Below are positions 39,465 through 63,726 of a DNA stretch of 64,000 nt, piece by piece. The translations under genes were made by a program, and so were the position numbers. Within the stretch, counting starts at the first letter, position 1, and every line of letters begins with the position of its first letter. Source of the DNA: a virus (Duplodnaviria; Caudoviricetes); the IMG/VR virus record IMGVR_UViG_3300026442_000101; one strand, given 5' to 3'. The notes beneath the pieces are model-generated. The model searched no databases. It saw only the letters and a list, made by a program, of their open reading frames with translations, and was not told the DNA's origin.

Positions 39465-40208
39465 TCAAGTCCTTGCGAGTGTGGTTCCGCGCTGCCCTTG
39501 GTATTTACCGCCTTTGTCTTTGTAGCTGATTCTGCAGACTTCAGAGACAGTGTGGAACAGCAGCTGAGCGATACCGCAGCCGAGGTACACGCGGGTTGGG
39601 CTGTTGGTCATCGAAGCGATCTCGAGAACCAGCTCGCCTTCCCATTCCGGCTCCAGCGGGGTAACTAGCTGAGACAGGCCAACGCGGGCATAGGTGGACT
39701 TGCCAAGGCAGGTCACCAGCAGGTCACGCGGAATAACGAAGTATTCGACGGTGTGGGCCAGCGCCAGACTGTTAGGCGGCAGGATGAAGTAGTGCAGACC
39801 GAACTCTTCATCGAAGTGGATCACCGGGTCCATGAGCTGGTCGCCATACGGCCGCATCGGATCGACGATCTCACCGGTGAGGTTGGTGAACAGCTTGATA
39901 CCGTCGGCCTTGATGCGAATGTCGTAGCCGTAGGAGCTGGTGCCCCAGCTGATGATCTTGGTACCCTTCTCGTTGAAGCGGTTAGCCTCTGGAGAGAACG
40001 GCCAGATCATGGGCCGCCAACCGAAGCGGGAGCAGTCCTCGTCATCCTTTGGAGTCTCCAACCCCATCCAGCGACGCTTCTCCATATTCGCCACGATCTC
40101 TGGCGTATGGGTGACGCCCGGAATGATCGGTTCCCAGAAACCATCGCGACGCATGAAGTGGTTAGGGCGCATGCAACGCGCCTGAATTTGACGATCGGAC
40201 AGCAGCAT
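39465..40208 (-). CDS. dcd: dCTP deaminase
   Basis: SSYGYDIR, GKSTYARVG, PLEPEWEGELVLE and KYQGQRG motifs. Confidence 0.9.
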   Translation of the reverse strand: MLLSDRQIQARCMRPNHFMRRDGFWEPIIPGVTHTPEIVANMEKRRWMGLETPKDDEDCSRFGWRPMIWPFSPEANRFNEKGTKIISWGTSSYGYDIRIKADGIKLFTNLTGEIVDPMRPYGDQLMDPVIHFDEEFGLHYFILPPNSLALAHTVEYFVIPRDLLVTCLGKSTYARVGLSQLVTPLEPEWEGELVLEIASMTNSPTRVYLGCGIAQLLFHTVSEVCRISYKDKGGKYQGQRGTTLART

Positions 40209-40764: not shown

Positions 40765-41664
40765 TTACATCTCAGCCAGACGATGGATAGCGTCTTCCAT
40801 CTCCATGTCGGGGTTCTCATCGAGAAGCTGGCGCATCTGATCCGTTACGGGAGTCTTGCTGATCGGAATCCGAATCACCTCACCGCCGGTGACGGTACGC
40901 TCGACAGGCGCAGTGAGTTGTTTGACTTCTTGCGGTGCGGAGGAGGTGTGCTCCGATTCCACTGCCTGTCGCCACTTGTTGCGGTTACGCTCCTTGAGAT
41001 CTTCGCAGCGTTTGGCGATGGACTCGTGATGTTCTTCCAGAGTCTTGTGCGTCTTCAGCTTGAAGCGGAACTTCTCCACTTCACGCGTCATGCACGGCTC
41101 GCAACGCCCGCACGCTGTAGCGCCCTTACGGGCATTGGTAGTCGGTAGTTCACAGACCCAGGTAGCAGCGTAGATCTCTGGTGGGAGATCGCGCATCATG
41201 GCGAACTTGGTAGTGTGTCGCAACGGGAACTTCAAGGGGACGACATCACCTTTCTTGGTGAAACGCCACATGGCATTCCACGCCTCGATCATCGAGTGCA
41301 TCTCTTGCAGCGTGTCATCGTCAGCGCAATAGCCGATGTTGACCGAGGTGTGGACATCGGGATCGACCATCTCGATTGCAGCTACCATCCAAGGTAGCGC
41401 TTGACGCCACTTGGCTTTAGGCGTCGCCGACAGATTGACCTTCGACAACACACGCCCGCCGCCATGCGGATACCAGCCTGGCCAATACTCTTTGATCAGG
41501 CTGATGATCTCCCCGCGGGAGTCCTCTTCGACGGAAGACTTATTGCGACCCTGGGCGCCGTCAGCGTAGATGTAGTCGACCTGAGTTCCTGCCTCTGCCA
41601 TTTCCCACATGAGGTAAGTGGAGTCCATCCCACCAGAGAAGAGGACGAGTGCACGCTTAGCCAT
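40765..41664 (-). CDS. QueC-like PP-loop ATPase with Zn-binding Cys cluster
   Basis: ALVLFSGGMDST; C-x13-CGRCEPC; the canonical QueC VPxRN motif is not visible. Confidence 0.75.
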   Translation of the reverse strand: MAKRALVLFSGGMDSTYLMWEMAEAGTQVDYIYADGAQGRNKSSVEEDSRGEIISLIKEYWPGWYPHGGGRVLSKVNLSATPKAKWRQALPWMVAAIEMVDPDVHTSVNIGYCADDDTLQEMHSMIEAWNAMWRFTKKGDVVPLKFPLRHTTKFAMMRDLPPEIYAATWVCELPTTNARKGATACGRCEPCMTREVEKFRFKLKTHKTLEEHHESIAKRCEDLKERNRNKWRQAVESEHTSSAPQEVKQLTAPVERTVTGGEVIRIPISKTPVTDQMRQLLDENPDMEMEDAIHRLAEM

Positions 41665-62405: not shown

Positions 62406-62933
62406 TCAGTTGACCCGAAGGATCACTTGATCACGACCACCGCGTTGAGCCAGCCATTCGTAGAACTGCGTATACTTCATATTGCAGAAGAAGTAACTGG
62501 CATCGTCGACGATGATGAGCTTTGCTGGGGGAATAGGATCGGGCAGACCTTTCTTCCGATGCAGGATCGAGCGCTTTACTTCGTATGGCGTACACACACG
62601 AACGCTTTCTAATTCTGCACGGGGATACCCGATGAAATCAGGGTTCTCGTTCGCACAGTTCTGGATCAGCATCTTCTTGATCCTGAGGTTCGGTACGATG
62701 TAGAGCGCCTCACCTACCAGGTTGAAGATCTGAGCCAAAGCTCTGGTACGGCCGGTCTGACGTGGGACGAAGAACCCCACAGTCTTCCAGTCACGCAACC
62801 AGATGTCGTCTGGAGGAGCTGCCCTTCTGTACTGTTCCTCGAACCACTCCTGTTCGGCGTGGAATGGCGCCAGCAGGCTCTGTACCATCTCCTTCGGATT
62901 GAAGGGAGGTTGTGAGACCGTTTTCTTACTCAT
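62406..62933 (-). CDS. Hypothetical protein with degenerate P-loop (RQTGRT; IIVDD)
   Basis: Walker A/B-like remnants. Confidence 0.5.
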   Translation of the reverse strand: MSKKTVSQPPFNPKEMVQSLLAPFHAEQEWFEEQYRRAAPPDDIWLRDWKTVGFFVPRQTGRTRALAQIFNLVGEALYIVPNLRIKKMLIQNCANENPDFIGYPRAELESVRVCTPYEVKRSILHRKKGLPDPIPPAKLIIVDDASYFFCNMKYTQFYEWLAQRGGRDQVILRVN

Positions 62934-63349
62934 CTTGTAATCTCGCCTTTATATTCAAACGGTAAGTTCGCCTTCTCAGCGATCTTCCGTAAAACGTTTA
63001 TGCTTAAGTGTCGGTGACAGAACTTACCGGGACTACAATAGCACGCAATGGCCACCTCACTGTCTCGTCCCAATTCGAGCAGATCGTAGAAAGACCGACG
63101 CCAACTACCGTACCGATCGCGTAATAGCGCTAGGTATTGTTCGGTATACATCTCGTCGGTTATGAGCTCGCCCTTGTGGTTCATGACCATCGTCCAAGTG
63201 GGTGCGAGAAACTCGTACTCCACAGCTGACTTTACCGTGGTATCGGCCAGGATGATTCCCCTATCCTGCACCAGTCTCCACTGGCTAATCTGCGCTGTCC
63301 AAAAGGCCATGCTAAGCTCCGGTATTCTCTGACATACATTTGCCAGCAT
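62930..63349 (-). CDS. DUF488-like protein
   Basis: LAPTW...Y...Y..LL....IACYC..G.FCHR. Confidence 0.7.
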   Translation of the reverse strand: MLANVCQRIPELSMAFWTAQISQWRLVQDRGIILADTTVKSAVEYEFLAPTWTMVMNHKGELITDEMYTEQYLALLRDRYGSWRRSFYDLLELGRDSEVAIACYCSPGKFCHRHLSINVLRKIAEKANLPFEYKGEITR

Positions 63350-63362
63350 AAATGAAAGTTTA

Positions 63363-63395
63363 CGGCATAAAGCCGGGATCTATCCCGGCAGTATG
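63363..63395 (-). terminator. Hairpin plus TTTATGCCG
   Basis: GCCGGGA-TAGA-TCCCGGC, directly after the tRNA-like element. Confidence 0.7.
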
Positions 63396-63398
63396 TTT

Positions 63399-63530
63399 AG
63401 GCCCCGAGCGGGAGATTTGAACTCCCCACCAACTAATAAACGACGGACACGGGAAAGTGCGTCAGGCATGAAACCCTTTCCAGTATATCGTATCGCAGTT
63501 CGCCGGAGTAGCGCCAGCCGCTAGCCAGGG
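63399..63530 (-). ncRNA. tRNA-like element with a non-canonical central domain
   Basis: Perfect T-arm GGGAG-TTCAAAT-CTCCC followed by GCTCGGG pairing with 5' CCCTGGC (1 mismatch); TAGCG/CGCTA D-arm-like hairpin; about 80-nt insert; no normal anticodon arm. Confidence 0.5.
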
Positions 63531-63537
63531 ATGATCG

Positions 63538-63726
63538 TTACAGGAACTTGGGCTTTTCCTTAGTCAGGCAAGCCGCCGGGAAGCCGGTAGCGCGAACTTC
63601 ACCATCGGCCATCCAACGAACCACCGTGTGCTCGTCTTCCTCATCATAACGCTCGACGGTCAGTTCCGGAGAACCGCTTTTGAGGTAGACGACATCACCT
63701 GGTTCGAACTTGGTAGCTTCGCTCAT
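63538..63726 (-). CDS. YodC-family (DUF2158) protein
   Basis: F..GDVV.LKSG.P.LTV....V.W......F....L. Confidence 0.8.
   Translation of the reverse strand: MSEATKFEPGDVVYLKSGSPELTVERYDEEDEHTVVRWMADGEVRATGFPAACLTKEKPKFL

Follow-up and report, generated by a model that had tools for sequence, protein, structure and literature searches.

The DNA analysed here, a window of 64,000 nucleotides (nt) from a bacteriophage (IMG/VR record IMGVR_UViG_3300026442_000101), carries on its minus strand, at 63530-63399, a transfer RNA (tRNA)-like element that is very probably a working tRNA look-alike incapable of reading codons. The element cannot decode, because it has no anticodon stem-loop, and it is taken to be a working look-alike, because it is almost invariant in related phages in which the neighbouring DNA differs by about 20%. 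The best explanation, to which we give a rough probability of 0.55, is that it encodes a stable RNA of about 131 nt that is functional and tRNA-shaped but does not decode. This RNA, the last of a row of anticodon-less scaffolds, would mature like a tRNA, and its long arm would act on a partner.

All of the sequence parts named in the initial annotation of this site are present on the minus strand at 63530-63399. In the numbering of the element used below, position 1 corresponds to 63530. The parts, together with the hairpin that follows them, are listed here.

63524..63530, minus strand: 5' acceptor strand CCCUGGC (positions 1-7)
63509..63523, minus strand: U8-A9 and the reduced D arm, UAGCG-GCUGG-CGCUA (positions 8-22)
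63504..63508, minus strand: linker CUCCG, which joins the D arm to the long arm (positions 23-27)
63428..63503, minus strand: irregular hairpin of 76 nt at the anticodon-arm position (positions 28-103)
63476..63481, minus strand: GGAAAG, 5' strand of the arm's most stable helix (positions 50-55)
63452..63457, minus strand: CUUUCC, 3' strand of the same helix (positions 74-79)
63410..63426, minus strand: canonical T arm GGGAG-UUCAAAU-CUCCC (positions 105-121)
63400..63409, minus strand: 3' acceptor strand GCUCGGG (positions 122-128), discriminator G (129), and CC (130-131)
63367..63389, minus strand: GC-rich hairpin GCCGGGA-UAGA-UCCCGGC followed by UUUAU, with a stem of 7 base pairs (bp) (63389-63372), 9 nt past CCU

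The T arm contains the equivalents of G53-C61, U54, U55, C56, and A58, has the UUCRANY loop on a 5-bp stem expected of a canonical tRNA, and is the only T-arm-like site on the minus strand of the window; a single G (position 104) separates it from the 76-nt arm. Six of the seven positions in the acceptor stem are paired, with a U4:C125 mismatch and a G5:U124 wobble, and the mismatch is kept in every lineage that carries the element. In the minimum-free-energy fold, the acceptor register is shifted, such that U124 is bulged, G129 pairs with C1, and seven pairs are formed. The D arm has a stem of 3-5 bp and a 5-nt loop with GG at its end, and the linker between the D arm and the long arm is 5 nt, as compared to 1 nt in tRNA. 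In favour of a tRNA-like body, ordinary tRNAs could be aligned over their full length with a covariance model of the element (R1), at marginal scores.

ARAGORN at its default settings reported no tRNA and no transfer-messenger RNA (tmRNA) in the window, and gave no credible call with the intron, mitochondrial, and tmRNA options. Rfam yielded no match at its gathering thresholds, and none, including to RF00005, when 451 nt around the site were searched at E ≤ 10. These negative results bear out the view of the initial annotation that the element is neither a standard tRNA nor a tmRNA. In addition, a 7-nt anticodon loop with U33 on a 5-bp stem is absent from every register of the element.

The conservation of the element was examined in four lineages: the window phage (246-kb contigs L012 and L013), the IMG/VR contig L001, the IMG/VR contigs L002 and L003, and the Logan contig L016. 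The flanking DNA is 78-81% identical among these lineages. The element is identical in L001 and L002/L003, and a single change is present in L016 (U95 to A), located in an internal loop of the arm. Overall, 1 of 129 sites in the element is variable among the four lineages, whereas 13-40% of the sites in the flanks vary, with 17 variable sites in the 130 nt directly downstream and 18-26 per 65 nt in the coding flanks. Our own binomial estimate against the intergenic rate of 0.13 gives a P of about 3e-7. In sliding windows, the element was the top-ranked conserved 130-nt block of 7-10 kb in three of three pairwise comparisons, and, judged by eye, it is more conserved than the neighbouring true tRNAs.

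The limits of this conservation are sharp. Homology starts at A(-2)U(-1) (63532-63531), directly before CCCUGGC, despite an unrelated upstream context, and variation returns right after the CC: the next base is U at 63399 in the window (G-CCU-AAAC) and A in the relatives (G-CCA-AAC), so that G-CCA is encoded in three lineages. The boundaries of conservation coincide with the predicted ends of the RNA, and the pattern of substitutions shows very strong purifying selection on the RNA sequence. The initial annotation had made its reading depend on conservation of the insert in relatives and on the element not being a decayed pseudogene. The relatives carry the same element including the insert, none has a normal tRNA at this site, and the low variability speaks against decay.

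The hairpin downstream of the element was originally taken for a terminator. The GC-rich hairpin is indeed present, whereas the U tract in its UUUAU tail is too short to be accepted by the terminator scan on the minus strand; it may at best be a weak terminator or a processing hairpin. Its stem is conserved, and its tetraloop differs in each lineage (UAGA, GCAA, UCGC, and GCGA). The Logan contigs L017 and L018, from a related phage, start 6 nt upstream of this hairpin, and those nucleotides (TATCG) differ from the other lineages, which reflects either an assembly break at the RNA gene or a different upstream sequence.

The 76-nt arm is about three times longer than an anticodon arm. In the minimum-free-energy fold and the partition function, in which the pair probabilities of the arm are 0.66-1.0, it is composed of the helices GC/GU, AACUG/UAGUU, ACGAU/GUCGU, AUAC/GUGU, GGAAAG/CUUUCC, GU/GC, and UCA/UGA, capped by the loop UGCC. 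The GGAAAG/CUUUCC helix is nested, with a pairing probability of 0.97-1.0. According to the initial annotation, this insert was pseudoknot-capable, with GGAAAG pairing to CUUUCC in the loop of a GACG-CAC/GUG-UC-CGUC hairpin. Imposing that hairpin costs 10-12 kcal/mol (-37.8 or -35.8 kcal/mol, as compared to -48.2 kcal/mol), and the 6-bp GGAAAG/CUUUCC duplex could regain -5.5 kcal/mol at most. A pseudoknot is therefore not needed, since the cost of forcing it exceeds the return. By our own reading of pseudoknot geometry, it would also leave connecting loops of 1 nt only. The pseudoknot domain was thus rejected on energy and loop geometry; a plain nested hairpin, which is favoured by about 10 kcal/mol, fits better. 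The fold predicted for the element rests on thermodynamics and on analogy with the sister RNAs described below.

Beyond the end of the window, on the same strand, the genome continues into a cluster of tRNA genes, which in L012 encode tRNA-Ile, Tyr, Asn, and Gln, each with an encoded CCA. After these normal tRNAs stand seven other tRNA-shaped genes without anticodon loops (elements b-h), also on the same strand, and the studied element is the last in the row. The cluster includes the following features.

L012:2781-3187 and L002:4796-5582: normal tRNAs (Ile, Tyr, Asn, and Gln in L012; Ile, Asp, Tyr, Asn, and His in L002)
L012:3490-3795 and L002:5733-6050: double-headed RNAs b and c
L012:4333-5058, L002:6305-7033, and L016:1200-1922: Sequestin-family gene (Pfam PF21825)

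The studied element shares the features that define this family, namely the same strand and cluster, a 7-bp terminal stem, in which it forms six pairs or, in the shifted register, seven, U8, the GG of the D loop, the T arm, an N-CC end, and the lack of an anticodon loop. What sets it apart from its sisters is a shorter D arm, a linker of 5 nt, and a trailer that reads CCUAAAC or CCAAAC instead of CC(C)UAUU; the sister RNAs end in N-CC(C)-UAUU, not in CCA. A scan with the T-loop and CCTATT trailer of the family gave multiple matches in this lineage only.

Elements b and c are double-headed RNAs of ~150 nt, in each of which an outer tRNA body leads, by way of its anticodon stem, into a second tRNA body that is circularly permuted; a loop closes the acceptor of this inner body, and lineage-specific extra hairpins are present at the junction. 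Elements d, e, and f have a normal scaffold, in which the anticodon loop is swapped for a structured insert of 18-59 nt, and d and e reach the Rfam tRNA threshold with their inserts counted as insertions. Among the four lineages, compensatory changes were observed in 6 of the 31 predicted pairs of element d, with one pair broken, and in 6 of the 35 predicted pairs of element f, with none broken. For element f, all of the compensatory changes lie in the tRNA scaffold, and the first 46 of the 59 nt of the insert are invariant, a pattern that fits a scaffold carrying a functional insert. These comparisons show that the sister RNAs are real RNAs, whose scaffold and insert helices have been kept by compensatory changes.

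Element h is present in the window phage only, with a length of ~148 nt (L012:5202-5349), of which the last 39 nt fall in the window (64000-63962, minus strand). Its 3' end is GUUGGAG-A-CC-UAUU, it contains CCCAGCAAUGGGG, and a 12-nt direct repeat, TGGAGACCTATT, is found on both of its flanks; L016 carries a different tRNA-like insert at this site. In L016 (compared with L012:4216-4305), element e is precisely missing, with a copy of the CCTATTC trailer on either side of the gap. The repeated 3' CCTATT trailers seem to be the means by which RNA cassettes are gained and lost.

A stretch of about 300-375 nt free of open reading frames (ORFs) (L012:3188-3487, L002:5134-5509) separates the normal tRNAs from the tRNA-shaped RNAs. 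The 3' two-thirds of this stretch are highly conserved and terminate in GCGCUUAUUC. The stretch has no Rfam match, and it looks like a further structured RNA.

The window phage is an uncultured phiKZ-like jumbo phage: its capsid protein is of the PhiKZ type, it has a divergent DnaB-like ATPase, and many of its genes are recognized by PHROG families only. The protein-coding genes on either side of the element are as follows.

63538..63726, minus strand: upstream gene, 62 amino acids, DUF2158, an insertion specific to the window phage
62930..63349, minus strand: downstream gene, DUF488-N3a, an ORF of 139 amino acids (126 amino acids in its database form), which follows the RNA gene in all four lineages

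In L001, L002, L003, and L016, the RNA gene lies immediately next to the stop codon of a phrog_9138 gene. One or two small genes separate the element from f or h. The spacer between the RNA gene and DUF488 (63398-63350, minus strand) is about 87% conserved. It contains three TATG motifs (UUUAUGCC, UUUAUGCUGG, and UGUAUGUC) and may be a phage promoter region; the late promoters of phiKZ are centred on TATG. Elsewhere in the window, a dCTP-deaminase-like gene (39465-40208, minus strand) lies near an ORF of 299 amino acids (40765-41664, minus strand) with a weak N-terminal match to QueC, and these genes may form a module for nucleotide or 7-deazaguanine modification.

On the reading that the element encodes a non-decoding, tRNA-shaped stable RNA, it would be transcribed together with the upstream genes. 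Cleavage by RNase P would be expected between U(-1) and C1, because of the U at -1, the 12-bp acceptor/T minihelix, and the G-CC 3' end; this enzyme depends mainly on a 12-bp acceptor/T minihelix together with an RCC 3' end. The 3' end would then be formed by exonucleolytic trimming, followed by completion of the CCA by a host enzyme. The tRNA elbow and ends would provide tRNA-like stability and access to tRNA-binding proteins, and the specific activity, the binding of a protein, would reside in the 76-nt arm or else be spread over the entire invariant surface.

The most plausible setting is a tRNA-centred takeover of the host or counter-defence, in which the RNA would either mimic a tRNA without being cleavable or act as a binding module on a scaffold. 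This setting is proposed because the cluster is enriched in queuosine-family tRNAs and contains a gene for a Sequestin sponge. The tRNA set of L002 covers all four tRNAs of the queuosine family (Tyr, Asn, Asp, and His), which anticodon nucleases of the colicin E5 type target. The Sequestin assignment concerns a gene of 241 amino acids within the RNA cluster, just upstream of element f, which has a precomputed Pfam match to PF21825; members of this family are reported to be phage sponges for immune signalling molecules (bioRxiv 10.1101/2025.07.12.664507). The presence of this gene suggests that the operon may be a counter-defence island. For the decoy role against anticodon nucleases or ribosome-linked defences, which was part of the initial annotation, the evidence is circumstantial.

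A more specific proposal, which we put forward as tentative and by no means the expected outcome, is that the element is one of eight natural "tRNA-scaffolded" effector RNAs that form a counter-defence set. The tRNA body would be used for processing, stability, and access to host factors that bind tRNA, and the arm would block or sequester an immune nuclease that targets tRNA, or an immune signal. No tRNA-shaped RNA inhibitor of bacterial immunity was found in the literature searched.

Several observations weigh against the reading as a functional RNA gene. A canonical T arm with at least six of seven bases of a matching acceptor 7-mer 40-200 nt upstream is expected about 0.66 times per random 64-kb sequence, and thus the tRNA-like motif alone is within chance expectation; conservation and context raise the element above chance, whereas its shape alone does not. 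The fold is not more stable than those of shuffled sequences (z = -1.16). The junction linkers of the element are 0-2/5/1/0, in contrast to 2/1/5/0 in tRNA, and the D loop has just 5 nt. An L shape is therefore not assured, since the junction is not tRNA-like and the D loop is this short. The near-invariance of the element leaves its own fold without support from covariation, and the near-identity could partly reflect a recent exchange of cassettes between lineages.

The searches for homologues and partners count on the same side. A BLAST search of the element against 50,697 phage records gave nothing significant, and exact-pattern scans of IMG/VR returned just three contigs, all of the same lineage. 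A loop-anchored pattern scan of the JGI metagenomes gave the same lineage and random matches, and scans of 185,579 species genomes gave no homologue and one random match. The covariance model of the element (R1), applied to 36 loci and to five whole jumbo-phage genomes (DT01, RSL2, FLC6, FLC9, and LucasX), found no homologue. When relatives were followed by synteny through the DUF488 neighbour, there was a gap in identity from 77% down to 56%, and the farther relatives are without the element. No homologue was thus found outside one lineage in these databases. Similarly, scans of about 50 ORFs of the window against Pfam and PHROG gave no Ro60/TROVE protein, RNA ligase, kinase-phosphatase, or CCA-adding enzyme, and no partner protein was identified among them. 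Antisense complementarity, scored as complementary 10-12-mers in the window and the upstream locus, was at chance level.

As an alternative, the element could be a Y-RNA-like partner of a Ro60-type ring protein, in which a tRNA-like module would give stability, a long stem would carry the protein site, and the ends would have been moved to the acceptor. YrlA RNAs are non-coding RNAs that likewise pair a tRNA-like module (T arm, D arm, and acceptor-like stem) with a long stem at the anticodon position, and they occur in phages; in Mycobacterium smegmatis, RNase P cleaves YrlA and CCA is added to it (PMC4201824). The 5' strand at the foot of the arm contains GGCGAA (positions 27-32), which equals the core of the YrlA motif GNCGAAN0-1G. 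However, the match is only partial, as GGCGAA continues with CUG and not with N0-1G, and a 5-base motif is expected about 0.12 times per 132 nt. The inner bodies of the sister elements b and c show weak matches to the Rfam YrlA family RF02553 (25-38 bits, up to 37.7, as compared to a threshold of 69), whereas the studied element has no match to RF02553 even at E ≤ 10. The topology is also opposite to that of YrlA, in which a loop closes the acceptor and the long stem holds the ends of the RNA; the ends of the studied element lie in the acceptor stem. Finally, a YrlA RNA would be expected on the same strand as a Ro60/Rsr (TROVE) gene and within about 4 kb of it; no TROVE/Ro60 match was present among the neighbours, in the about 50 window ORFs, or among the precomputed Pfam matches of the 6 kb upstream, which together cover roughly 70 kb of the 246-kb genome. 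We consider this reading unlikely.

The position of the element next to the protein-coding genes raises the possibility of a cis-acting operon element, which would be either a 3'-end stabilizer or processing signal of the upstream mRNA, or a leader or attenuator for DUF488. In the relatives, the element stands directly after a stop codon; it is always upstream of DUF488 in this lineage, and the conserved hairpin and a leader of about 90 nt, 87% conserved, precede the DUF488 start. In contrast, no such element precedes the DUF488-N3a genes of farther phages (L014, Erwinia AH06, and L004-L008), the seven sister RNAs show no tie to any single gene, and by our reading of the sequence there is no convincing alternative pairing between the element and the hairpin. 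A cis-acting role is therefore quite improbable.

The element might also be a tRNA gene interrupted by an intron or insert, from which a decoding tRNA is produced. When introns were allowed at a threshold of 80%, ARAGORN modelled a tRNA-Gly(CCC) with a 42-nt intron, and the inserts of the sisters d and e are treated as insertions in their above-threshold Rfam tRNA matches. The tRNA-Gly model, however, is obtained only when the threshold is lowered from its default, and it requires a D stem of poor quality and a variable arm of 22 nt. By our reading of the sequence, no excision restores a 5-bp stem and a 7-nt loop with U33. The element is too short for a group I intron, no Rfam intron match was obtained, no bulge-helix-bulge (3-4-3) is present in the fold, and the insert helices of d and e covary, so that the inserts appear to have been kept as structure. 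The intron reading was rejected, since no register gives an anticodon stem-loop and the ARAGORN model is poor; it has very little probability.

Equally small is the probability that the element is a decaying tRNA pseudogene, or a functionless leftover of cassette shuffling. The truncated D arm, the acceptor mismatch, the unremarkable z-score, and the negative results of the tRNA finders would be in keeping with such an origin, as would the gain and loss of cassettes in the region, where e is absent from L016, h is restricted to the window phage, and L016 has a different insert. Conservation, however, rejects this reading: no other block of the region is as conserved as the element, even the acceptor mismatch persists in every lineage, and the element exceeds, by eye, the adjacent true tRNAs in conservation. 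An attachment site, in the form of a tRNA 3' fragment at a prophage end, was likewise rejected, as the 5' half of the element pairs with its 3' half, no integrase was found in the scanned ORFs, and the phage is of the phiKZ-like kind.

That the element is a ribosome-rescue RNA in the manner of a miniature tmRNA, with a tRNA-like domain and a short tag frame, is hardly credible: from G28, the arm reads GCG AAC ... GCC UGA, that is, 13 codons (ANCDTIYWKGFHA) and a stop, with an Ala-Asn start like that of many tags, but this frame lies inside stable helices, an open frame of this length has a chance of about 50%, pair 3 is C3-G126 and thus not the G3:U70 determinant for alanine, neither ARAGORN under relaxed settings nor Rfam reported a tmRNA, and known one-piece tmRNAs are more than twice as long as the element.

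The reading as a non-decoding, tRNA-shaped stable RNA was also compared with known RNAs. By architecture and position, the closest classic analogue is RNAC of phage T4 (species 1 RNA, 139 nt). Each is an RNA gene of 130-140 nt that closes a phage tRNA cluster at its distal end, on the strand of the tRNAs. Like the element, RNAC has a canonical T arm (CCGGG-UUCGAAU-CCCGG) that leads directly into a 3' strand complementary to the 5' end; long hairpins lie in between, and an anticodon loop is absent. In contrast to the element, RNAC lacks a D arm, its annotated end is without CC(A), and the host and the phage family differ. The model R1 found nothing in the T4 tRNA region, and there is no homology to T4 rnaC.

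The tRNA-like domain of tmRNA resembles the element in that the acceptor stem and T arm are kept and a long helix takes the place of the anticodon arm, whereas the element, at about 131 nt, lacks G3:U70, pseudoknots, and a detected tag, and has a D stem, which the tmRNA domain does not. A further likeness is to the engineered "tRNA scaffold" RNAs of Ponchon and Dardel, in which a foreign RNA that replaces the anticodon loop is reportedly processed and protected by the cell. The element and its sisters follow the same design, in which an intact body of acceptor, T, and D arms carries a structured insert where the anticodon would be; in element f, the insert is invariant on a scaffold that drifts in a compensatory manner. 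These scaffolds are synthetic whereas the phage RNAs are natural, and in the studied element the junction is also remodelled.

Overall, the element is best filed, as a new variant, among the poorly understood "stable RNAs of phage tRNA regions". The role of T4 RNAC is still unknown (PMC3014915; PMC9697503), and those of the stable RNAs RNAC and RNAD of the T4 tRNA region are both unexplained. The row of non-decoding tRNA bodies described here is an extreme case of such RNAs, and the studied element, as the most conserved piece of the region, is a good candidate for finding what they bind. Phage tRNAs counter tRNA-cleaving defences, as shown in recent work (for example, PMC10264068 and PMC11555353). 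If the counter-defence proposal is true, a non-cleavable tRNA mimic would be a new twist on this conflict over tRNA cleavage and a natural counterpart of the synthetic tRNA scaffold. If the RNA is instead a structural partner of a phage protein, it would represent a new class of phage RNA-protein particle.

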